Positions 663-11,989 of a DNA stretch of 64,000 bases are shown here, piece by piece; the stretch's first letter is position 1, and every line of letters begins with the position of its first letter. The notes under the pieces were generated by a model. That model saw only the letters and a program-made list of their open reading frames with translations. It was not told where the DNA came from and searched no databases. Both the position numbers and the translations under genes were made by a program. Location of the stretch: NCBI RefSeq assembly GCF_054482525.1, contig NZ_CM137006.1. One strand, 5' to 3'.

Positions 663-2360
663 ATGAAATCCCCCACCCCTTCTCGCCCGCAAAAAATGGC
701 GTTAATTCCAGCCTGCATCTTTTTGTGTTTTGCTGCGCTATCGGTGCAGGCAGAAGAAACATCGGTAACGCCACAGCCGCCTGATATTTTATTAGGGCCG
801 CTGTTTAATGATGTGCAAAACGCCAAACTTTTTCCGGACCAAAAAACCTTTGCCGATGCCGTGCCGAACAGCGATCCACTGATGATCCTTGCTGATTATC
901 GGATGCAGCAAAACCAGAGCGGATTTGATCTGCGCCATTTCGTTAACGTCAATTTCACCCTGCCAAAAGAGGGCGAGAAATATGTTCCGCCAGAGGGGCA
1001 GTCACTGCGCGAACATATTGACGGACTTTGGCCGGTATTAACGCGTTCTACCGAAAACACCGAAAAATGGGATTCTCTGTTACCGCTGCCGGAACCTTAT
1101 GTCGTGCCGGGCGGACGTTTTCGCGAGGTATATTACTGGGACAGTTACTTCACCATGTTAGGACTTGCCGAAAGCGGTCACTGGGATAAAGTCGCGGATA
1201 TGGTGGCCAATTTTGCTCATGAAATAGACACTTACGGTCATATTCCCAACGGTAACCGCAGCTATTATTTGAGCCGCTCGCAGCCGCCCTTTTTTGCCTT
1301 GATGGTAGAGTTACTCGCGCAACACGAAGGTGACGACGCGTTGAAACAATATCTGCCGCAACTGCAAAAAGAGTACGCGTACTGGATGGACGGTATTGAA
1401 AACCTGCAGGCCGGACAACAGGAAAAGCGCGTTGTTAAACTCAAGGATGGCACTATTCTTAACCGCTACTGGGATGACCACGATACGCCACGTCCGGAGT
1501 CGTGGGTAGAAGATATTGCCACCGCCAAAAGCAATCCGAATCGACCTGCCACTGAAATTTACCGCGACCTGCGCTCTGCCGCTGCGTCTGGCTGGGATTT
1601 CAGCTCGCGCTGGATGGACAATCCGCAGCAGTTAAATACCTTACGCACCACCAGCATCGTACCGGTCGATCTGAACAGCCTGATGTTTAAAATGGAAAAA
1701 ATCCTCGCCCGCGCCAGCAAGGCTGCCGGAGATAACGCGATGGCAAACCAGTACGAAACGCTGGCAAATGCCCGTCAAAAAGGGATCGAAAAATACCTGT
1801 GGAACGATCAACAAGGCTGGTATGCCGATTACGACCTGAAAAGTCATAAAGTGCGCAATCAGTTAACCGCGGCCGCCCTGTTCCCGCTGTACGTCAATGC
1901 GGCAGCGAAAGATCGCGCCAGCAAAATGGCGACGGCGACGAAAACACATCTGCTGCAACCAGGCGGCCTGAACACCACGTCGGTGAAAAGTGGGCAACAA
2001 TGGGATGCGCCAAACGGCTGGGCACCGTTGCAGTGGGTCGCGACAGAAGGATTACAAAACTACGGGCAAAAAGAGGTGGCGATGGACATTAGCTGGCACT
2101 TCCTGACCAATGTTCAGCACACCTATGACCGGGAGAAAAAGTTGGTGGAAAAATATGATGTCAGCACCACCGGAACAGGGGGCGGCGGTGGCGAATATCC
2201 ATTACAGGATGGCTTTGGCTGGACCAATGGCGTGACGCTGAAAATGCTGGATTTGATCTGCCCGAAAGAGCAACCGTGTGACAATGTTCCGGCGACGCGT
2301 CCACTCAGTGAATCAACAACACAGCCGGTAAAACAAAAAGAGGCGGAACCTACGCCTTAA
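663..2360 (+). CDS. treA: Periplasmic trehalase
   Basis: 565 aa from ATG 663 (GGAG 9 nt upstream); signal peptide; near-identity to remembered K-12 TreA. Confidence 0.95.
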
Positions 2361-2696
2361 CTTTGCTGTATATCGAGCAATGCCATTATGTGCATAAAAT
2401 TGGCATTGCTCTTTTTTCGCCACGAAATACCAAATACCACTCTTTCTACGGTCTATGCCTTTATTTTCTTTTATTAGAGAAGATTTTAATTTTATTTTAT
2501 CAACTTGTTAATCATTACACCTCTATTTATATTTTCCCCCACTCCCCATTCTCCCTGACAATTTTCTTGTGGAACAAAGTGTTATTTAAGAAACAAGCAA
2601 ATCATTCTGTCTCTTTAGACAAATTTTGACATCAAACATGATCTTTTTCGCTATATGTGTAAGTATATAGCGGTTTTAATTATCAGGATATTACTT

Positions 2697-3719
2697 ATGT
2701 CACTAACCAGACGGAGGTTTACACAGATTCTTGCGTCGACATTGTTCCTGCATCATCTGCCGTCCTTTGCACTATCAGTCAAATTCTGGGCCTCACTGAC
2801 GCTTCCCGAAGCCCAAAACATTACACGCATCGTCAGCGCAGGCGCGCCCGCCGATTTACTATTGCTGGCTGTCGCGCCAGAAAAAATGGTCGGTTTTTCC
2901 TCTTTTGATTTTGCCCGTCAGGCATTAATTCCATTGCCAGAGCACATTCGCCAGTTCCCCAGGCTGGGACGACTCGCCGGGCGCGCCAGCACACTCTCGC
3001 TGGAAGGGCTTATGGCGTTACATCCCGATTTGGTCGTTGATTGCGGCAATACGGATGAAACCTGGATCTCCCAGGCACGGCAGGTTAGCGAACAGACACA
3101 AATACCCTGGTTATTGCTTAACGGGAAACTGGCGCAATCAGCAGAACAGTTAACAACGCTTGGCAAAACGTTAGGCGAAGAGCACCGCGCCGCAGAACAA
3201 GCCAATCTCGCCAGCCGCTTCGTTGGTGAAGCTCAGGCATTCGCCACCTCACCCGCCGCTAACCTCAGCTTTTATGCTGCGCGCGGTCCTCGAGGGCTGG
3301 AAACGGGCTTACAGGGTTCGTTGCATACCGAGGCGGCGGAATTATTAGGTTTGCACAACGTCGCGCAAATAGCCGATCGCCACGGTCTGACACAGGTTTC
3401 CATGGAAAATCTCCTGCGCTGGCAGCCGGATATTATTCTGGTTCAGGAGGCCGTTACTGCAGATTTTATTCGTCGTGATCCTCTCTGGCAGGGCGTGAAA
3501 GCGGTTGCGGAACAACGCATCTTATTTTTAAGTGGCCTGCCCTTTGGCTGGCTGGATGCCCCGCCGGGAATCAACCGTCTTCTGGGATTACGCAGACTTC
3601 ACGCCTGGCTGGATCCCGCCATCAATCGCCAGTTTAAAAGTGACATGCAGAATTACGCCCAACTGTTCTGGCATTGCCCATTAAGTGACGCCAACTATCA
3701 AAAATTGGTGGCGAGCTAA
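2697..3719 (+). CDS. ABC transporter periplasmic substrate-binding protein (FecB/BtuF-like), probable Tat signal
   Basis: N-terminal LTRRRFTQIL twin-arginine-like motif; stop overlaps next start (TAATG). Confidence 0.75.
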   Translation: MSLTRRRFTQILASTLFLHHLPSFALSVKFWASLTLPEAQNITRIVSAGAPADLLLLAVAPEKMVGFSSFDFARQALIPLPEHIRQFPRLGRLAGRASTLSLEGLMALHPDLVVDCGNTDETWISQARQVSEQTQIPWLLLNGKLAQSAEQLTTLGKTLGEEHRAAEQANLASRFVGEAQAFATSPAANLSFYAARGPRGLETGLQGSLHTEAAELLGLHNVAQIADRHGLTQVSMENLLRWQPDIILVQEAVTADFIRRDPLWQGVKAVAEQRILFLSGLPFGWLDAPPGINRLLGLRRLHAWLDPAINRQFKSDMQNYAQLFWHCPLSDANYQKLVAS

Positions 3720-4699
3720 TGAGAACCGTAAACGGATGTATTTTGCTGCTGGCAGTTATCAGTATCACTTTTGCCGCCGTAAGTGGGGCTTATCATCTCG
3801 ATATACAGCAACTGCTGGCGCTCATTCTGCGTCAAGAAAATGTTCCTGTGCAGGAACAAATTGTCTTCTGGCAAATCCGCCTGCCGCGTATTCTTGCTGC
3901 GCTGTTTCTGGGCGCGGCGCTGGCAGGGGCCGGAACCACCTATCAGGGAATGTTCCGTAATCCCTTAGTGTCACCGGATATTTTAGGCGTCTCCGCCGGT
4001 GCCGGACTTGGTGCCTGCGCGGCAATCCTGTGGGGATTATCCATTGTTTACATCCAGCTGTACGCATTTTGCGGCGGGCTGATGGTGGTCGCGGGCGTCT
4101 GGTTGATTACGCGTCGGGTGACCCGCCACGATCCGATCTTAACCCTGGTGCTGGTAGGCATTGCGTTAGGAACGTTGTGCGGAGCGGGGATATCGCTAAT
4201 AAAAACGCTGGCCGATCCTTACACCCAGTTACCGTCAATTACCTTCTGGTTGCTGGGGGGGCTGTCCACCGTGACCTTACGCGATCTCTGCTATGCTGCA
4301 CCGATCATTCTCATAGGCTCCTTGCCCCTGTTTTTTCTCCGCTGGCGCATGAATTTACTCACGCTTTCCGACGACGAAGCCCGTTCGCTGGGACTGAACG
4401 TGACACGTCTGCGCTTTGGATTAATTGTCTGCGCCACACTAATCACCGCCAGCACGGTAGCAATAGCGGGCATAATTGGTTGGGTCGGCCTGGTCGTTCC
4501 GCACATTGCCCGCTTGTTGACCGGTCATAACCATCAGCAGCTGTTGCCCATGGCAATGTGTACTGGCGCGATTCTGCTCCTGCTTACCGATACGCTGGCA
4601 CGCAGCATTGGAACAACAGAAATCCCACTTGGCATTCTGACCGCTTTTGTTGGTGCACCGTTTTTCCTGTTTTTGTTGTTACGCGGAGGTCGCCATTGA
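3719..4699 (+). CDS. ABC transporter permease, FecCD family
   Basis: 326 aa polytopic membrane protein typical of iron-siderophore/cobalamin-type permeases. Confidence 0.8.
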   Translation: MRTVNGCILLLAVISITFAAVSGAYHLDIQQLLALILRQENVPVQEQIVFWQIRLPRILAALFLGAALAGAGTTYQGMFRNPLVSPDILGVSAGAGLGACAAILWGLSIVYIQLYAFCGGLMVVAGVWLITRRVTRHDPILTLVLVGIALGTLCGAGISLIKTLADPYTQLPSITFWLLGGLSTVTLRDLCYAAPIILIGSLPLFFLRWRMNLLTLSDDEARSLGLNVTRLRFGLIVCATLITASTVAIAGIIGWVGLVVPHIARLLTGHNHQQLLPMAMCTGAILLLLTDTLARSIGTTEIPLGILTAFVGAPFFLFLLLRGGRH

Positions 4700-5454
4700 C
4701 TTTGCTTGCCGTCCGTCATGCGTCTCTGGGTTACTCCCGCCATCCGGTGCTACGCGACGTGTCCTTCACCCTGTCGCAAGGAACAATTTGTTGTCTGTTA
4801 GGAGCCAATGGTTGCGGCAAAACCACACTCATGCGCTCCATTCTTGGCGTTATACCGTTATTAAAAGGCGAGATCTTACTGGATAGCCTCCCTGTGCAGA
4901 CACTCAGCCATCGCCAACGCGCGCAGGCTATTGCCTGGGTGCCGCAGGCGCACGACGGCATTTTTGCTTTTAGTGTGCTGGATATGGTGTTGATGGGCCT
5001 GGCCCCCACCATAGGCGCTTTTTCCGTTCCCGGTAAGCAAGAACGCCTGAAAGCCACGGAGCAACTGGAAAAGCTGGGCATTTTGCATCTGGCGACACGA
5101 CGCTGGAATACGCTTAGCGGCGGTGAACGTCAGCTGGCTTTAATCGCCCGTGCACTCGTCCAGCAACCGCGCTTGTTATTACTGGATGAGCCTGCCTCCA
5201 GCCTCGATTTCGGTCATCAGATCCAACTACTGGACACGCTGGCGCAGCTCAAAAATAACGGCATGACAATGCTAATGTCGACTCATCATCCGCTCCATGC
5301 CAACGCCATTGCCGACAGCATTATCCAGGTAGAGCCAGATGGACGAGTAACACAAGGCTTACCGACCGAACAGTTAACAACAAACAAACTGGCTGCCCTG
5401 TATCGGGTTTCTGCCGACCAGATTCATCATCACCTCTCTGCAATTAGCCACTAA
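4696..5454 (+). CDS. ABC transporter ATP-binding protein
   Basis: Walker A GANGCGKTT, signature LSGGERQ, Walker B LLLDEP; probable TTG start at 4696 overlapping permease stop. Confidence 0.8.
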   Translation: MTLLAVRHASLGYSRHPVLRDVSFTLSQGTICCLLGANGCGKTTLMRSILGVIPLLKGEILLDSLPVQTLSHRQRAQAIAWVPQAHDGIFAFSVLDMVLMGLAPTIGAFSVPGKQERLKATEQLEKLGILHLATRRWNTLSGGERQLALIARALVQQPRLLLLDEPASSLDFGHQIQLLDTLAQLKNNGMTMLMSTHHPLHANAIADSIIQVEPDGRVTQGLPTEQLTTNKLAALYRVSADQIHHHLSAISH

Positions 5455-5463
5455 GGAATAATC

Positions 5464-6276
5464 ATGCTCATTGATGATATTGATTTTGCGGACCTTTACC
5501 TGCAGCAACTCAAACTGGCCCACCGCACAGAAAAAACGCCGGATCACTGGGATCAACGGGCGGAAAAAATGGCGGAAAATTGCGCCTCGCCTACGGACAG
5601 CTACCTGCAACAACTGACCGCTAAAATTGATCTGCAAGGCGCGCAGACCTTATTCGATATGGGCTGCGGACCGGGTACCGTATCGCTGGCGCTGGCTGAC
5701 AAACTCACGACGATTTATGGCGTTGATTACAGTCAGGGGATGCTGAAGGTTGCCGCCCGTCGCGCCGCCGCGCTAAAGGCAGACAATGTCCACTGGATCC
5801 AGCGCGCATGGGAAGAGGACTGGAGTGACCTGCCACGCTGCGATATTGCCGTGGCTTCCCGCTCCACTCTGGTGGCTGATATTCGCCAGGCAATGAGCAA
5901 ACTGAATAATCAGGCACGGCTTCGCGTCTATACGACTCATCTGGTCAGCACCTCGTTCGTCTCTCCAGCCATTCAGCGGGCGGCTGGTCGGGAAGTGATC
6001 GAATTACCCAACTATATCTTTGCGCTCAACGTCCTGTATCAGATGGGAATTTATGCTCACGTTGATTTTATCCGTGGACAAAATTGCCAACAGGATAACA
6101 GCACCTGGGAACGTTTTGAGCAGAACGTCAGCTGGAGTCTGGGCGCGCTTAACGACGATGAGCGTGAGCGGTTATATCGCTGGTATCAACAACAAGATGC
6201 TCGTGCCCTCGCCCCTGCCAGCCGCGACTGGGCGCTCATCTGGTGGGATAGCGTACCGCAAGAGGCACTGCGATGA
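5464..6276 (+). CDS. Class I SAM-dependent methyltransferase
   Basis: SAM-binding motif DMGCGPGTVSLALA; 3' end overlaps next gene by 4 nt (ATGA). Confidence 0.7.
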   Translation: MLIDDIDFADLYLQQLKLAHRTEKTPDHWDQRAEKMAENCASPTDSYLQQLTAKIDLQGAQTLFDMGCGPGTVSLALADKLTTIYGVDYSQGMLKVAARRAAALKADNVHWIQRAWEEDWSDLPRCDIAVASRSTLVADIRQAMSKLNNQARLRVYTTHLVSTSFVSPAIQRAAGREVIELPNYIFALNVLYQMGIYAHVDFIRGQNCQQDNSTWERFEQNVSWSLGALNDDERERLYRWYQQQDARALAPASRDWALIWWDSVPQEALR

Positions 6277-7127
6277 TTTTCCTTTCTCAGGCACAAATCG
6301 ATGCGTTACTTCTGGAAGATATCCAGGGCGGTGACCTGACCACGCGAGCATTAAATATTGGACACCAGCATGGCTATATAGAGTTTTTTCACCGTCAGGG
6401 CGGCTGCGTCAGCGGAATTTCTGTCGCGTGTAAGATGTTAACTACGCTGGGATTAACTATTGATGACGCGGTCAGCGACGGTTCACAAGCGATCGCGGGT
6501 CAGCGGCTAATCCGTGCGCAGGGTAATGCCGCAGCACTTCATCAGGGATGGAAGGCAGTCCAGAATGTGCTGGAGTGGAGTTGCGGTGTTTCTGATTATC
6601 TCGCTCAAATGCTGGCGTTACTTCGTGAACGTTATCCTGATGGCAATATCGCCTGCACCCGAAAAGCAATTCCGGGCACCCGCTTACTGGCCTCGCAGGC
6701 AATTCTGGCTGCCGGAGGACTGATTCATCGTGCCGGATGTGCGGAAACCATATTATTGTTTGCCAACCACCGCCATTTTCTTCATGACAATCAGGACTGG
6801 TCAGGCGCAATCAATCAGTTACGTCGCCACGCACCCGAGAAGAAAATAGTTGTTGAAGCCGACACGCCGAAAGAGGCAATCGCCGCGTTACGCGCGCAAC
6901 CAGACGTACTTCAGCTCGACAAATTTAGTCCGCAACAGGCAACTGAAATTGCGCAAATAGCACCGTCGCTGGCTCCCCACTGCACGCTGGCTCTGACCGG
7001 CGGAATTAATCTGACAACTCTCAAAAATTACCTCGACTGCGGCATTCGCCTTTTTATTACCTCCGCGCCTTATTACGCGACACCAGCTGACATTAAAGTC
7101 AGTCTGCAACCCGCAGCCTCTATTTAA
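6273..7127 (+). CDS. modD: ModD-like protein (nicotinate-nucleotide pyrophosphorylase family)
   Basis: 284 aa; family call by pattern recognition only; translationally coupled to the methyltransferase. Confidence 0.6.
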   Translation: MIFLSQAQIDALLLEDIQGGDLTTRALNIGHQHGYIEFFHRQGGCVSGISVACKMLTTLGLTIDDAVSDGSQAIAGQRLIRAQGNAAALHQGWKAVQNVLEWSCGVSDYLAQMLALLRERYPDGNIACTRKAIPGTRLLASQAILAAGGLIHRAGCAETILLFANHRHFLHDNQDWSGAINQLRRHAPEKKIVVEADTPKEAIAALRAQPDVLQLDKFSPQQATEIAQIAPSLAPHCTLALTGGINLTTLKNYLDCGIRLFITSAPYYATPADIKVSLQPAASI

Positions 7128-7152
7128 TTCTTTGTTAAACGGAATTTATTCT

Positions 7153-9123
7153 ATGAGACTCAAAAAACGTTATCTCTGCACAGCATTATCACTTGCCTTT
7201 ACCCAGCAGGCCTTAGCGGCTCAGGAGAGTGACTCGCTGACCGTATGGTCCAGTCCGGTATCATCAACGACGACCACCGTTCTCGATCAACCCACCATGA
7301 AGGCCCTGGATAAACAGAATGTCGCTCAGGCATTAAGTGTCGTCCCCGGCGTGGTGCTGCAAAAGTCAGGTAGCCGCAACGAAGAACAGGTCAAAGTTCG
7401 TGGCTTTGATAGTCGTCAGGTGCCGGTCTATTTCGACGGTGTGCCCATTTATGTTCCCTATGACGGCAACCTCGATCTAGCGCGGATTCTGACCAACAAT
7501 TTGGGGGCAGTTGAAGTTTCCAAAGGGTATTCGTCGCTGCTTCAGGGGCCTAATCAGATGGGCGGAGCCATTAATATCACTACCCAGAAGCCAACAAAAC
7601 CTCTGGAAGCAAATCTGGGATATCGCCAGGGATGGAGCCGTAGCCAGGACAATGCCTACGATATGCATGCTTCATTTGCCGCCAGCAGCGATCTGGGGTA
7701 TTTGCAAGTCAGCGGTAGCCAGCTAAAGCAGGATTTTCTCGGCCTGCCGCATGGTGTAAATAATGATATTGCAGGCAAACACGGCAAGATGATTAATTCA
7801 TCGGCTGATGATAAACGCGGCATTGTGAAGCTCGGTTTTACACCACGCGAAAACGATGAATACACATTGACTTACATTAAGCAGGATGGTGAAAAAGATA
7901 ACCCGCCATACAGTGGAAATAGTGGTCAAAAATCACGCTACTGGCAGTGGCCAGAGTATGACAAAGAAAGTTTTTATTATCAGGGAACGACCCAACTAAA
8001 CGATCGTTTTACCCTGAAAAGTCGGCTGTATCGCGACACCTTTGAAAATACGCTGATGATGTACAACTCGCTGGCTGATTTGAAAAATAAAAAAGGCAGC
8101 TACAGCCATTATTCCGATTACAGCGACGGTGCCGGGTTACAACTGGCAGCCGATGTGCGTGAAAACGATCTGCTGTCGTTTGCCGTTAACTGGAAAGATG
8201 ACGTACACCGGGAAAAAGGTGCGCCGCACGCCGCTTACGATCGCTATGAAGATCGTACCTGGTCGCTCGCCAGTGAATATCAATGGGCTGCTGCCGATAA
8301 TGTCGATGTCGTGGCTGGAATCAGCTATGACTGGCGCGATAGCGTAGAAGCGAAAAAACATGAGAAAGATGGCAGCATCACCCATTATGACGACAACAAT
8401 CAGTCAGCTTTTAACTGGCAGGTGATGGGGAAATACCACTTTGCCAATGAAGACACGCTGGCGCTTTCGTACTATGACCGCACACGCTTTCCGACGCTGA
8501 AAGAACGCTATACCACGTCCAAACCTGCGTATAACCAGATAGCGATTGTTAACCCGCAGCTCAAACCGGAACGCGCGCGCGGGGTGGATTTAACCTGGAA
8601 TGGTGCCTTCACGCACGACTGGGGGTTTGAGGTCAGCGTTTACTATAACCGGGTGAGTGATGCCATCCTCTCGCACAATATCGATGCCGATACCATTCAA
8701 AATCAGAACAGCGGCACGGTGGATTACAGCGGTCTGGATGCCGGTATTAAGGGGAAAATCAGCAATATACTGGATGTAGGATTGAGCTACGCCCTGATCC
8801 ACGCTGATGCCAAACGCAAAGACATCGGCAAGATAACCGATCTGCCAACGCAGACAATGACCGCATGGATGACTCTCAAACCGTGGGAGCCGTTAAGCGT
8901 AACGCTGTCGGAAGAGGCGCGTTCCTCCAGCTACAGCAACAGTGACGGTTCACAAAAAGCCGCCGGTTTTGCGGTGACCCACATTCGAGCCGATTACACC
9001 TTAGGTCATGGCTTCAGCGTCAATGCGTCGGTCAATAACCTGTTTGATACCAAATATGCCTACAGTGAAGGGTTTATTGAAGAAGGTCGCAATTTCTGGG
9101 CAGGTATCGAGTATACGTTCTGA
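7153..9123 (+). CDS. TonB-dependent outer membrane receptor
   Basis: Signal peptide MRLKKRYLCTALSLAFTQQALAAQ, plug and barrel architecture, C-terminal aromatic residue (YTF). Confidence 0.85.
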   Translation: MRLKKRYLCTALSLAFTQQALAAQESDSLTVWSSPVSSTTTTVLDQPTMKALDKQNVAQALSVVPGVVLQKSGSRNEEQVKVRGFDSRQVPVYFDGVPIYVPYDGNLDLARILTNNLGAVEVSKGYSSLLQGPNQMGGAINITTQKPTKPLEANLGYRQGWSRSQDNAYDMHASFAASSDLGYLQVSGSQLKQDFLGLPHGVNNDIAGKHGKMINSSADDKRGIVKLGFTPRENDEYTLTYIKQDGEKDNPPYSGNSGQKSRYWQWPEYDKESFYYQGTTQLNDRFTLKSRLYRDTFENTLMMYNSLADLKNKKGSYSHYSDYSDGAGLQLAADVRENDLLSFAVNWKDDVHREKGAPHAAYDRYEDRTWSLASEYQWAAADNVDVVAGISYDWRDSVEAKKHEKDGSITHYDDNNQSAFNWQVMGKYHFANEDTLALSYYDRTRFPTLKERYTTSKPAYNQIAIVNPQLKPERARGVDLTWNGAFTHDWGFEVSVYYNRVSDAILSHNIDADTIQNQNSGTVDYSGLDAGIKGKISNILDVGLSYALIHADAKRKDIGKITDLPTQTMTAWMTLKPWEPLSVTLSEEARSSSYSNSDGSQKAAGFAVTHIRADYTLGHGFSVNASVNNLFDTKYAYSEGFIEEGRNFWAGIEYTF

Positions 9124-9130
9124 TGTGAAA

Positions 9131-9160
9131 GCGGATAGCGGCATCTGTATCGCTATCCGC
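9131..9160. terminator. Hairpin between convergent TonB receptor gene and ymgE
   Basis: Perfect 10 bp inverted repeat gcggatagcg / cgctatccgc. Confidence 0.5.
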
Positions 9161-9172
9161 CTTATGAAAATC

Positions 9173-9427
9173 TTATTCTCTTCGCAGGAGGCGGAATACG
9201 CCCAGCACCAGGATAGCGCCCACTACCGCCACCAGGAAGCTGTGCAGATTAAAACCACTAATGGAGCCGCCAATGCCAAACATGGTCGCCAGCCAGCCGC
9301 CGACCACCGCACCGACTATCCCGAGAATACAGGTCAGGAAAAATCCACCACCATCACGCCCCGGCATGATTAGCTTGGCGATAATGCCGGCTATCAGGCC
9401 AAAAATAATCCAGGCAATAATTCCCAT
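9173..9427 (-). CDS. ymgE: YmgE/GlsB-family small membrane protein
   Basis: 84 aa from MGIIAWIIFGL; matches remembered K-12 YmgE. Confidence 0.8.
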   Translation of the reverse strand: MGIIAWIIFGLIAGIIAKLIMPGRDGGGFFLTCILGIVGAVVGGWLATMFGIGGSISGFNLHSFLVAVVGAILVLGVFRLLRRE

Positions 9428-9566
9428 GTTCAGGCCCTCGTTTCGATGAATCGGACGCAAGAAATGCTTACGTCAACGCTCTAAGTATAGGCAAGGGCGG
9501 GATCGATGCTGGGCGTATGTCGGCTGATTTAAGAACAACATGTAAAAAATATTCACGCATTTGTAT

Positions 9567-9592
9567 TAAGTTTTGTTAACTGTGACCGATAA
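9567..9592 (+). promoter_or_regulatory. Putative sigma-28 (FliA) promoter upstream of ycgR
   Basis: TAAG-N14-ACCGATAA resembling the flagellar class 3 consensus TAAA-N15-GCCGATAA. Confidence 0.55.
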
Positions 9593-9627
9593 ACCTAAGA
9601 CAGTTTGTCAGTCAGGAGTTTTTCCGC

Positions 9628-10362
9628 GTGAGTCATTACCATGAGCAGTTCCTGAAACAAAATCCGTTAGCCGTCCTGGGCGTGTTACGCGATTTGCACA
9701 AAGCCGCAATTCCTTTGCGTATCAGTTGGAATGGCGGGCAGCTGATCAGCAAAATACTGGCAATAACCCCGGATAAACTGGTGCTGGATTTCGGCAGTCA
9801 AACCGAAGATAACAACGCTGTGTTAAAGGCGCAGCACATTACCATAACCGCCGAAACCCAGGGCGCGAAAGTCGAATTTACTGTTGAACAACTACAGCAG
9901 AGTGAATACTTGCAGCTTCCGGCATTTATTACCGTACCGCCTCCCACCTTGTGGTTTGTACAACGACGCCGATATTTCCGCATCTCCGCCCCACTCCATC
10001 CGCCTTATTTTTGCCAGACCAAACTGGCGGATAACAGTACGTTACGTTTCCGCCTGTATGATTTGTCGTTAGGCGGCATGGGCGCATTACTGGAAACAGC
10101 AAAGCCTGCCGGATTGCACGAAGGCATGCGCTTCGCTCAGATTGAAGTCAACATGGGGCAATGGGGTGTTTTTCACTTTGACGCCCAGTTAATCTCCATC
10201 AGCGAGCGCAAAGTGATTGATGGCAAGAATGAAACCATCACCACTCCCCGTCTGAGCTTCCGTTTTCTTAACGTCAGCCCGACGGTGGAGCGGCAATTAC
10301 AGCGGATTATTTTCTCTCTCGAGCGGGAAGCCCGGGAGAAAGCGGACAAAGTGCGCGACTGA
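9628..10362 (+). CDS. ycgR: Flagellar brake protein YcgR (c-di-GMP binding PilZ protein)
   Basis: 244 aa, GTG start, matches K-12 YcgR. Confidence 0.9.
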   Translation: MSHYHEQFLKQNPLAVLGVLRDLHKAAIPLRISWNGGQLISKILAITPDKLVLDFGSQTEDNNAVLKAQHITITAETQGAKVEFTVEQLQQSEYLQLPAFITVPPPTLWFVQRRRYFRISAPLHPPYFCQTKLADNSTLRFRLYDLSLGGMGALLETAKPAGLHEGMRFAQIEVNMGQWGVFHFDAQLISISERKVIDGKNETITTPRLSFRFLNVSPTVERQLQRIIFSLEREAREKADKVRD

Positions 10363-10363
10363 T

Positions 10364-11989
<1,626 letters not shown>

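Follow-up and report, generated by a model that had tools for sequence, protein, structure and literature searches.

Six genes between treA and ymgE

The window, the whole 64,000-nucleotide (nt) stretch of DNA that was analysed, carries six plus-strand open reading frames (ORFs) between treA (positions 660–2360) and ymgE (9173–9460, minus strand). They encode, in order, a binding protein with a Tat signal, a FecCD permease, an ATPase, a SAM methyltransferase, ModD and a TonB-dependent receptor. The binding protein and permease genes meet at a TAATG (3717–3721), the TTG start codon of the ATPase gene, with GGAGG upstream, overlaps the TGA stop codon of the permease gene (4696–4699), and an ATGA (6273–6276) couples modD to the methyltransferase gene; the six tightly packed genes form a genuine operon. 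A sequence-only reading of the locus had proposed six co-directional genes of these families, joined by tight or overlapping junctions in an operon. Its gene content is borne out by the ORF listing and by the RefSeq annotation of an identical genome and of CFT073, both of which hold the same six genes, and its family assignments, junctions and operon structure likewise hold. The start of the binding protein gene was corrected from 2655, a position within the ModE operator described below, to the ATG at 2697, as in RefSeq; an AGGA Shine–Dalgarno sequence lies 8 nt upstream of this ATG, and the encoded protein begins MSLTRRRFTQ. The receptor start was corrected to 7153. A perfect 10-bp inverted repeat read directly from the sequence, GCGGATAGCG-N10-CGCTATCCGC (9131–9160), lies between the convergent receptor and ymgE genes and is probably their shared terminator; it was not called by the terminator scan, and it is also kept in the K-12-type allele. 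In NCBIfam, ModD scores above its cut-off, and the other five operon proteins fall below every equivalog cut-off. No published characterisation of the operon was found in the literature searched.

Of the 5426 complete Escherichia coli genomes, 2139 (about 39%) carry the operon, CFT073 and O157:H7 among them. The K-12-type allele has ycgY in its place, as the sequence-only reading had anticipated in placing the operon outside K-12. That reading had also described the operon as an island that replaces ycgY, and here the direction is reversed. The G+C content of the genes (0.45–0.57) is like that of the flanks and ordinary for E. coli, the ORF listing of the locus contains no integrase or transposase ORF, the treA–operon–ymgE order recurs in E. 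albertii, Citrobacter, Raoultella and Enterobacter, and the K-12 allele retains the final 24 nt or so of the receptor ORF. On these grounds we rejected a horizontally acquired island. The ordinary G+C content, the same slot in relatives and the receptor remnant indicate that K-12-type strains lost the operon, which, judged from these comparisons, appears to be ancestral to Enterobacterales and lost from K-12 rather than gained by others.

A predicted ModE operator ahead of the operon

The region upstream of the binding protein gene contains a predicted ModE operator (Mo-box), TTCGCTATATGTGTAAGTATATAGCGGT (2647–2674), with a core palindrome, CGCTATAT-N8-ATATAGCG, at 2649–2672. It matches 17 of the 20 positions of the consensus ATCGNTATATA-N6-TATATANCGAT, as quoted in PMC545781, and is the sole match to this consensus in the whole 64-kb window. 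The predicted box ends 24 nt before the ATG of the binding protein gene and shares the architecture CGnTATAT-N8-AyATAnCG with the validated K-12 modA operator, which scores 16/20 and ends 19 nt before the modA ATG. Nearly every locus for which upstream sequence is available has a box scoring 15–20/20 ahead of the operon. These boxes come from at least 12 genera (Escherichia, Citrobacter, Raoultella, Klebsiella, Enterobacter, Serratia, Symbiopectobacterium, Proteus, Pantoea, Erwinia, Pectobacterium and Affinibrenneria), with a further one from a metagenomic relative of 45% G+C. A scan of 1.22 Mb gave 62 sites of 15/20 or better, and 58 of these precede the operon or mod genes. The operon box is the best site in each locus of roughly 20 kb, except in Proteus, which, like Pectobacterium, has a second ModE box directly before the receptor gene that in Proteus scores equal or higher.

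In an alignment of the upstream regions of 16 taxa (45% mean column identity), only the ModE box and a −35-like TTGAYN, 17–20 nt upstream of the box, are conserved. Here the latter is TTGACA (2626–2631, plus strand), and T67 and A70 of the aligned block are invariant. The promoter scan called no canonical sigma-70 promoter at this hexamer, because the 18–20 nt that separate it from the TATAT of the box are not a canonical −35 to −10 spacing, and we therefore infer the promoter assignment at this position. From the sequence comparisons we also strongly infer ModE control of the operon. The palindrome at 2649–2672 would be bound by molybdate-loaded ModE at a site predicted to overlap the −10/transcription-start region, as the modABC operator does, so that ModE would switch the operon off at sufficient molybdate. 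ModE is also an activator at some promoters, and thus repression of this operon is read only from the position of the operator. The literature searched yielded no reports of ModE binding or of molybdate-dependent expression for the operon.

The same palindrome (2648–2673) could instead be an RNA hairpin, either a treA terminator or attenuator or a leader structure, rather than a protein site. The terminator scan does report an 11-pair stem at this position, followed by TTTTAATTAT, but only three of the pairs are G–C, and the element lies about 290 nt past the treA stop codon, close ahead of the operon ATG. Moreover, the genera share the ModE consensus sequence and not the pairing: the right arm in Proteus (GAAATAACG) and the left arm in Pantoea and Erwinia (ATCATTAT) each break the hairpin and keep the ModE half-site positions. 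We consider the hairpin reading most improbable.

Fur sites and riboswitches had been suggested alongside ModE as candidates for this region; the ModE search was positive, and the other two were negative. At best, a Fur box is matched at 13/19 positions here and at 9–14/19 across 40 orthologous promoters, which is background level, and nothing in 2200–9700 matches a riboswitch or any other Rfam family at E values up to 1. These results bear on the annotated function, an iron–siderophore or haem importer under Fur, for which the ModE-like palindrome would be incidental. RefSeq names the products iron ABC transporter substrate-binding protein and TonB-dependent siderophore receptor, and there are weak matches to the FecB, FepB and IsdE models and to siderophore and haem receptor subfamilies. 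However, all iron-family scores lie far under their curated cut-offs (FecB, for example, 28 bits versus 320), the Fur matches are at background, the ModE box is kept in sequence and position across genera and the remaining promoter is not, and the linkage to modD is left unexplained. An iron importer is therefore very unlikely, and the earlier view that the operon is not a plain siderophore importer stands.

Transport proteins and accessory enzymes

As shown by homology, the predicted transport architecture comprises an outer-membrane receptor, a binding protein and a type II ABC importer. The binding protein (2697–3719, plus strand; RefSeq start) is a periplasmic class III (Peripla_BP_2) protein with the twin-arginine signal noted above, and every NCBIfam match to it is far under cut-off. 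Its nearest solved relatives by profile are, in order, 4PAG (Sulfurospirillum, no ligand known), 4OVK and MolA (HI1472). A Foldseek search with its AF2 model (pLDDT 85.8) places 4PAG at the top, followed by MolA (3PSA). The protein has the expected class III fold and clusters with 4PAG, 4OVK and MolA, not with siderophore, haem or B12 binders; MolA, second by structure and third by profile, is only about 20% identical in the structural alignment, and the protein is probably not a MolA orthologue. The FecCD/BtuC-type permease (3719–4699, plus strand) is MolB-like: its best PDB match is HI1471 (MolB, 2NQ2) at 225 bits, ahead of FhuB (179), HmuU (169) and BtuC (148). For the ATPase (4696–5454, plus strand), the best single-domain importer match is HI1470 (MolC) at 126 bits, a small margin over FhuC (121).

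An alternative is the salvage of corrinoids or other cofactors, in which BtuB/BtuFCD-like import would be followed by remodelling of the imported cofactor by a corrinoid-associated methyltransferase and a CobT-like phosphoribosyltransferase. In NCBIfam, the permease matches BtuC best, the best match of the methyltransferase is the corrinoid-protein-associated methyltransferase CpaM (E = 3e-11), and the receptor weakly matches BtuB models. All three scores, however, are below cut-off (BtuC 245 bits versus 461, CpaM 43 versus 180, BtuB 69 versus 836), MolB leads BtuC by about 80 bits in the PDB search, no cobalamin riboswitch appears in the Rfam search described above, and the regulator site is of ModE type. 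Corrinoid salvage is accordingly a far-fetched reading of the locus.

The receptor (7153–9123, plus strand; 656 amino acids) fits the class of TonB-dependent transporters, which is marked by a signal peptide, a TonB box, a plug with a 22-strand barrel, and a C-terminal aromatic residue. Its signal peptide ends in ALA, before AQE, and its C-terminus is YTF. The TonB box, (D/E)x(M/L)T(V/I)WSSP, follows the signal peptide and recurs in 13 taxa, the receptors of homologous operons have plug and barrel Pfam domains on record, and there is no N-terminal signalling extension. TonB-dependent siderophore and haem subfamily models match residues 45–663 below their cut-offs, and the TonB-copper model gives 51 bits against a cut-off of 472.

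The methyltransferase (5464–6276, plus strand) is a predicted cytoplasmic class I SAM-dependent enzyme of small-molecule type, with the SAM motif DMGCGPG, in which D65, G67, C68, G69 and G71 are invariant in 23 homologues. No specific NCBIfam or PDB family was found for it, and its AF2 model (pLDDT 88.6) resembles natural-product and phosphoethanolamine N-, O- and C-methyltransferases at TM scores of 0.5–0.6, a generic likeness only. Its homologues stay with the receptor/ABC module even where a P-loop NTPase replaces ModD, and Edwardsiella has a methyltransferase–ModD pair behind a ModE box with no adjoining transporter.

ModD (6273–7127, plus strand) matches TIGR01334 at 500.6 bits (cut-off 178.85) and is quinolinate-phosphoribosyltransferase-like. 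Among 63 ModD proteins, the phosphoribosyltransferase residues T129-R130-K131, H152-R153 and E195 are invariant, and D/E216 and G243-G244 are nearly so. Both enzymes thus keep their catalytic motifs, on which the sequence-only reading had made its proposal depend. We take the quinolinate site of NadC, in Mycobacterium tuberculosis numbering, to comprise Arg105′, Arg139, Lys140, His161, Arg162 and Lys172. Two of these positions are replaced in ModD (Arg105 by Lys94 and Lys172 by Phe163), and these signatures are invariant in the same 63 proteins. NadC itself was rejected as an assignment (TIGR00078, 133.6 bits versus a cut-off of 198.4); ModD is therefore phosphoribosyltransferase-like but not NadC.

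The modD gene adjoins modABC/modE in Alcaligenaceae, Gilliamella, spirochaetes, Thermovibrio and Comamonadaceae, the Oligella modD locus also has modABC/modE, and modD occurs in nif clusters (PMC4999443). Its company with plain modABC and in nif clusters argues that ModD handles molybdenum itself, not an imported ligand. The ModD proteins of Rhodobacter capsulatus and of nif and mod clusters (TIGR01334) are of the same family and have the same invariant residues as the operon ModD, and in R. capsulatus the ModD protein is repressed by Mo (PMC6925177). These other ModDs are linked to modABC or nifUSVW, whereas the operon ModD is linked to a TonB/type II ABC system and a methyltransferase. A simple oxyanion importer accounts for neither the role of ModD nor that of the methyltransferase.

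Relationship to known molybdenum systems and the predicted cargo

The closest parallel is Haemophilus influenzae MolBC-A (HI1469–HI1475, the 'secondary molybdenum transporter'), which, as here, combines a type II BtuCD-fold importer with a class III binding protein and provides the best solved relative of the permease and the best importer match of the ATPase. Linkage of the transporter to modD is common to both loci, as the H. influenzae mol locus also holds modD (HI1473), adjoining molCBA (PMC3928620). Transcription of molB is repressed by molybdate (PMC4031551); the H. influenzae regulator was not identified by its authors, whereas the E. coli operon has a canonical ModE box. The gene list of the H. 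influenzae locus names neither a TonB-dependent receptor nor a methyltransferase (PMC3928620), and both are present in the E. coli operon. The affinity of MolA is low (about 100 μM; PMC3928620), and is thus a poor fit to a scavenging role.

The operon and E. coli modABC would both be molybdate-repressed uptake operons. ModABC differs in being a type I importer whose binding protein belongs to class II, it lacks both an outer-membrane component and accessory enzymes, and tblastn detected no sequence relationship between the transport proteins of the two systems. For the receptor, the parallel lies with TonB-dependent transporters of metals other than iron. OprC/NosA (copper), ZnuD (zinc) and FrpB4 (nickel) are under the regulator of their cognate metal instead of Fur and carry that metal's regulon to the outer membrane, as the predicted ModE site would do for the operon receptor. 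The receptor has no significant specific sequence match to these transporters. To our knowledge, none of them carries molybdenum, and we know of no TonB-dependent transporter for any oxyanion.

We propose that this ancestral Enterobacterales operon probably acquires molybdenum, or possibly tungsten, under shortage, as a molybdate-repressed and TonB-powered system. The regulation, the kinship with MolB and the linkage to ModD suggest a cargo that contains Mo or W. Once molybdate is exhausted, all six genes would be expressed. The receptor would capture the cargo at the cell surface and deliver it to the periplasm, driven by the proton-motive force, and the Tat-exported class III binding protein would pass it to the MolB-like type II ABC importer for entry into the cytoplasm. 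There, ModD, with its altered substrate pocket, and the methyltransferase would act in molybdenum handling or on a ligand of the cargo.

The form of the cargo is more tentative. Free molybdate or tungstate is quite possible, if short of an even chance; molybdate is small enough to pass through porins, so that with this cargo the need for the receptor is unexplained. A Mo–ligand complex is possible, with a somewhat lower probability. In a fuller version of the latter, the operon would import a molybdophore or xenometallophore, ModD would phosphoribosylate and the methyltransferase would methylate the ligand inside the cytoplasm, and the modifications would serve metal release or the recycling or detoxification of the ligand. 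This version is a sub-variant of our main explanation that differs in the cargo and in the roles of the enzymes; catecholate- or pyridine-carboxylate-type chelates are examples of such ligands. Chelates and cofactors are the classic cargo of TonB-dependent receptors and type II ABC importers (reviewed in PMC4245157), the methyltransferase is of a small-molecule type and accompanies the receptor/ABC module even without ModD, the receptor and methyltransferase are both missing from the H. influenzae mol gene list, and the conserved change of Lys172 to Phe alters the ModD pocket. Against this, ModD is also found beside plain modABC and in nif clusters, settings without import of an organic ligand (PMC4999443), the ModE-box-driven pair in Edwardsiella has no adjoining transporter, ligand biosynthesis genes were not found in the locus, and the permease is nearest to MolB, the small-substrate member among type II importers. 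On balance we regard this molybdophore version as somewhat unlikely. The sequence-only reading had suggested that the substrate is modified on uptake, and a role of ModD and the methyltransferase in this is conjectural.

Taken furthest, the operon would be the first TonB-dependent outer-membrane route for molybdenum, with a 'molybdophore' captured under ModE control and its ligand modified by ModD phosphoribosylation and SAM methylation, freeing the metal in the cytoplasm; this we hold to be doubtful. Such a molybdophore might be a product of other microbes or of the host.

Blooms of Enterobacteriaceae in the inflamed gut are driven by anaerobic respiration that depends on molybdoenzymes; such respiration also supports urinary-tract infection, and molybdate uptake through ModA is a known fitness factor (PMC7759655, PMC10174112). 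If molybdenum acquisition is the function of the operon, a second, ModE-controlled route with an outer-membrane receptor would add an unrecognised component to molybdenum homeostasis in its carriers, which include Proteus, Citrobacter and plant pathogens besides the E. coli genomes counted above. TonB-dependent transport would then extend to molybdenum, and the receptor would offer a target exposed on the cell surface and possibly a way in for tungstate or drug conjugates. Capture of molybdenum complexes, if it occurs, would count uropathogenic and enterohaemorrhagic E. coli and Proteus among its users, and ligand modification would supply ModD, uncharacterised for decades, with a biochemical function. 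The current iron-transport annotation misdirects the reading of transcriptomes and virulence screens, and the operon makes E. coli a tractable system in which to find the function of ModD.

Organization of the operon and the treA–ymgE interval

The interval between treA (660 to 2360) and the convergent ymgE (9173 to 9460) is filled by six co-directional open reading frames (ORFs) on the + strand, and the same six genes are present in the RefSeq annotations of a 100% identical genome and of CFT073. They encode, in order, a binding protein with the twin-arginine motif MSLTRRRFTQ (2697 to 3719), a FecCD permease (3719 to 4699), an ABC ATPase (4696 to 5454), a class I SAM methyltransferase (5464 to 6276), ModD (6273 to 7127), which is the sole product with an NCBIfam assignment over the curated cut-off, and a TonB-dependent receptor (7153 to 9123). 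The sequence-only reading had identified these genes correctly, as well as the overlaps between them (TAATG, 3717 to 3721; TTGA, 4696 to 4699, with GGAGG upstream; ATGA, 6273 to 6276). Two start sites had to be moved, that of the binding protein to the ATG at 2697 and that of the receptor to 7153. The ATG at 2697 has an AGGA 8 nt upstream and opens directly onto the twin-arginine motif; a longer binding-protein ORF, from 2655, would begin within the regulatory palindrome described below. An 88-codon ORF with a TTG start (2363 to 2629), lying in intergenic DNA of 37% G+C where RefSeq has no annotation, is probably spurious.

A megablast search of 5,426 complete Escherichia coli genomes detected the full 6.8-kb segment in 2,139, CFT073 and O157:H7 among them, and just its last 73 nt in the remaining genomes; ycgY fills this slot in the K-12-type genome. 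The region had been read as an uptake island that replaced ycgY, and the comparison reverses this direction. The coding part has the same G+C content as its flanks (0.45–0.57), and there are no mobility genes among the ORFs of the region. When 64 loci drawn from a species-level genome collection were queried by tblastn with all six proteins, the arrangement of treA, the six genes and ymgE proved to be shared by E. albertii, eight Citrobacter species, Raoultella and Enterobacter. Furthermore, homology to the K-12-type allele restarts at 9100, within the receptor ORF, so that this allele retains the last codons of the receptor (…GIEYTF*). Together, composition, synteny and the receptor remnant argue against an acquired island and indicate that the operon is ancestral and that a ycgY segment took its place in K-12-type strains. 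Alleles with the operon and those of K-12 type have treA genes that are 96–99% identical, except over the last ~80 nt, where identity falls to ~75% (2283 to 2361, compared with 2800 to 2878 of the K-12-type locus L002); the recombination that brought about the replacement therefore has its left breakpoint inside treA, at the 3′ end. Plasmids account for 12 of the 5,336 megablast matching places, a count that does not tell whole operons and short fragments apart.

A putative ModE operator upstream of the first gene

The first gene is preceded by 336 nt of AT-rich DNA, which contains the palindrome CGCTATATgtgtaagtATATAGCG (2649 to 2672). The enclosing 28-mer (2647 to 2674) agrees with the E. 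coli ModE consensus, ATCGNTATATA-N6-TATATANCGAT (PMC545781), at 17 of its 20 defined positions, so that, of the upstream motifs proposed for a search by the sequence-only reading, ModE is the one that was found. With a looser pattern allowing two mismatches, the palindrome is the sole site in the 64 kb. The K-12 modA operator, which is established by experiment, reads CGTTATATtgtcgcctACATAACG in MG1655; it scores 16/20 and has the same architecture, ending 19 nt before the modA ATG compared with 24 nt at the operon.

Almost every orthologous locus whose sequence extends upstream has a box scoring 15–20/20 before its first gene, and this box is the top-scoring site of its ~20-kb locus except in Proteus, where a second box, at the receptor gene, scores equally or higher. 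Sites of at least 15/20 occur 62 times in 1.22 Mb, and in 58 cases an operon gene, modA or modD follows within 350 nt; the second Pectobacterium box is one of the other four positions. These second boxes, scoring 18–19/20, immediately precede the receptor gene in both Proteus (L028–L038 and L040; ~10,920 to 11,080 in locus coordinates) and Pectobacterium (L044 and L045; 8599 and 10891, respectively), in which the spacer between ModD and the receptor is longer than that of E. coli, which is just 25 nt and has no box. Their position suggests that the receptor itself, beyond the head of the operon, is tied to ModE. A distant operon of 45% G+C likewise has ModE boxes before both the binding protein (18/20) and the receptor (16/20).

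When 16 upstream regions were aligned (mean column identity 45%), conservation was confined to two blocks, the box and a TTGAYN hexamer located 17–20 nt upstream of it (~26 nt in Proteus), which is how a −35 element accompanied by an operator across −10/+1 would be expected to look. The palindrome was also called by a terminator scan and could instead form an RNA hairpin; however, the pairing is not conserved, as Proteus, Pantoea and Erwinia break the hairpin yet hold the ModE half-site positions, leaving this reading poorly supported. The other proposed motifs gave negative results. The best Fur match in the 336-nt region has a score (13/19) that occurs 29 times in the window, and a consensus scan of 40 orthologous promoters gave 9–14/19 with no conserved box; on these background-level scores, Fur control was rejected. 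A riboswitch or other RNA element was likewise rejected, there being no Rfam match at E values up to 1 across 2200–9700. Collectively, the comparative evidence strongly suggests that the operon is controlled by ModE. In a relative of 70% G+C (L071–L073), an AT-rich palindrome, ATCGCTATTCA-N6-GAATAACG, lies ahead of the operon, ~35 nt before the receptor gene (2553 to 2580 in L071); it scores 11/20 against the E. coli consensus and may be a variant Mo-box with TATTC for TATAT.

Transport proteins, associated enzymes and predicted cargo

Among solved structures, the closest relative of the permease is HI1471 (MolB; 225 bits), ahead of FhuB (179), HmuU (169) and BtuC (148). MolB belongs to Haemophilus influenzae MolBC-A, a type II importer of molybdate and tungstate (PMC4031551; reviewed in PMC4245157); molybdate represses molB transcription (PMC4031551), and the locus is ordered modA-molCBA-modD-salX-cysU (PMC3928620). 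MolC is the best match of the ATPase among importer ATPases, by a slim and uninformative margin. The binding protein has a class III fold, and its profile search ranks 4PAG from Sulfurospirillum (158 bits) above 4OVK (74), MolA (66) and 4HN9 (57), with haem, B12 and siderophore binders at 42 or less. The top Foldseek matches of its AlphaFold2 model (pLDDT 85.8) are 4PAG and then MolA, and the two rankings place the protein in the neighbourhood of MolA, although it is not a MolA orthologue. The receptor has a signal peptide, a conserved TonB box (…E/D-x-M-T-V-W-S-S-P) and a C-terminal YTF, and lacks an N-terminal signalling domain; its PDB matches are confined to the plug region (22–30 bits) and are uninformative as to its substrate. 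An iron importer and a corrinoid module are both poorly supported as alternatives, as the iron and haem models and the B12 models, respectively, all scored far below their curated NCBIfam cut-offs, as did the copper and F420 models.

ModD scores 500.6 against an NCBIfam cut-off of 178.85, fails the NadC cut-off and can be aligned with the quinolinate phosphoribosyltransferase of Mycobacterium tuberculosis. Judged by the active-site residues of the 1QPR structure, it keeps the PRPP and catalytic positions (T129-R130-K131, H152-R153, E195, D216 and G243-G244), whereas two quinolinate-contacting positions are altered (Arg105 to Lys94 and Lys172 to Phe163). The listed ModD residues are invariant in 63 sequences from Enterobacterales to Thermovibrio, except for D216 (D/E) and G244 (one Cys). 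ModD is thus a competent-looking phosphoribosyltransferase with a substrate other than that of NadC. The SAM motif of the methyltransferase is invariant as well, and the two enzymes that had been singled out within the import operon therefore both retain their catalytic motifs, the changed quinolinate contacts apart. NCBIfam, PDB sequence and Foldseek searches, the last with a confident model (pLDDT 88.6), gave the methyltransferase no specific name, showing only generic likeness to small-molecule N-/O-/C-methyltransferases of class I.

Among more distant taxa, ModD adjoins modABC and/or modE in Alcaligenaceae, Gilliamella, Spirochaetaceae, Treponema, Thermovibrio and Comamonadaceae, and the Oligella modD locus carries modABC/modE too. 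In Alphaproteobacteria, ModD occurs within NifA-regulated nif clusters (PMC4999443), and the Rhodobacter capsulatus protein is repressed by Mo (PMC6925177). ModE regulation, kinship with MolB and linkage to ModD together point to molybdenum or tungsten as the cargo, which could be either the free oxyanion or a ligand complex, and the predicted transport architecture follows from homology. On the best-supported reading, the operon would import molybdenum, or possibly tungsten, under ModE control and with energy supplied through TonB, and would come into use when molybdate is in short supply. The system would be related to the MolBC-A/ModD locus of H. influenzae, but would span two membranes and be equipped with enzymes.

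The ModD family and MolBC-A are already known, and thousands of genomes carry annotations of the operon genes. Our full-text literature search found no paper characterizing the operon or noting its ModE box, an earlier in silico mention being possible, and none connecting ModE or molybdenum with a TonB-dependent receptor of any kind. Studholme and Pau (2003) reportedly surveyed ModE boxes. Reviews of molybdenum uptake by pathogens cover ModABC, MolBC-A and non-specific anion systems only (PMC7759655; PMC10174112). The candidate tag Z1966, mentioned once as an uncharacterized down-regulated gene (PMC5543532), is unconfirmed as a member of the operon, and the APEC receptor '2235' (of '0007/0008/2235'; PMC6979363) could not be equated with the receptor gene. 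Our analysis corrects a misleading iron annotation of the operon genes. It also suggests, from sequence, that important pathogens may take up molybdenum by a route that depends on TonB, a proposal open to direct testing.

Orthologous loci, reduced forms and a possible duplication

The six-gene order also occurs without the treA and ymgE flanks in Klebsiella indica, Yokenella, Serratia, Symbiopectobacterium, Proteus, Pantoea, Erwinia, Pectobacterium and Affinibrenneria (tblastn, 44–97% identity). More distant methyltransferase homologues (40–49% identity) reside in operons ordered TBDR-DUF2478-SBP-FecCD-ABC-MT or SBP-FecCD-ABC-MT-TBDR-NTPase_1, indicating that the conserved unit is a transporter and methyltransferase module, to which either ModD or a P-loop NTPase is added as the last accessory enzyme.

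Edwardsiella (L039 and L046; 9040 to 10850) has only the ModE box, methyltransferase and ModD, with transporter genes absent nearby. One E. tarda protein (P0230, 315 residues) combines ABC_tran and methyltransferase Pfam domains and looks like a deletion scar in which the 3′ end of the ATPase gene is fused to the methyltransferase. Intestinirhabdus alba (L026, 2783 to 6564) has a 20/20 box followed by the methyltransferase, ModD and the receptor, and is missing the binding protein, permease and ATPase; in Citrobacter koseri (L017, 6352 to 9164), the binding-protein and ATPase matches are fragmentary and the permease has no match. These two lineages show partial decay of the operon.

E. albertii (L007, 4828 to 6369) carries ~1.5 kb between treA and the ModE box that is missing from E. 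coli. A 3.2-kb contig labelled MAG: Collinsella sp. (L005), with 98–99% protein identity to the E. coli ATPase, methyltransferase and ModD, is almost certainly a binning contaminant in an actinobacterial MAG. Scaffold 1 of Affinibrenneria salicis contains two whole copies of the operon ~750 kb apart (L041, 143–164 kb; L042, 911–932 kb) with identical gene coordinates and identities, reflecting a large duplication or else an artefact of assembly.
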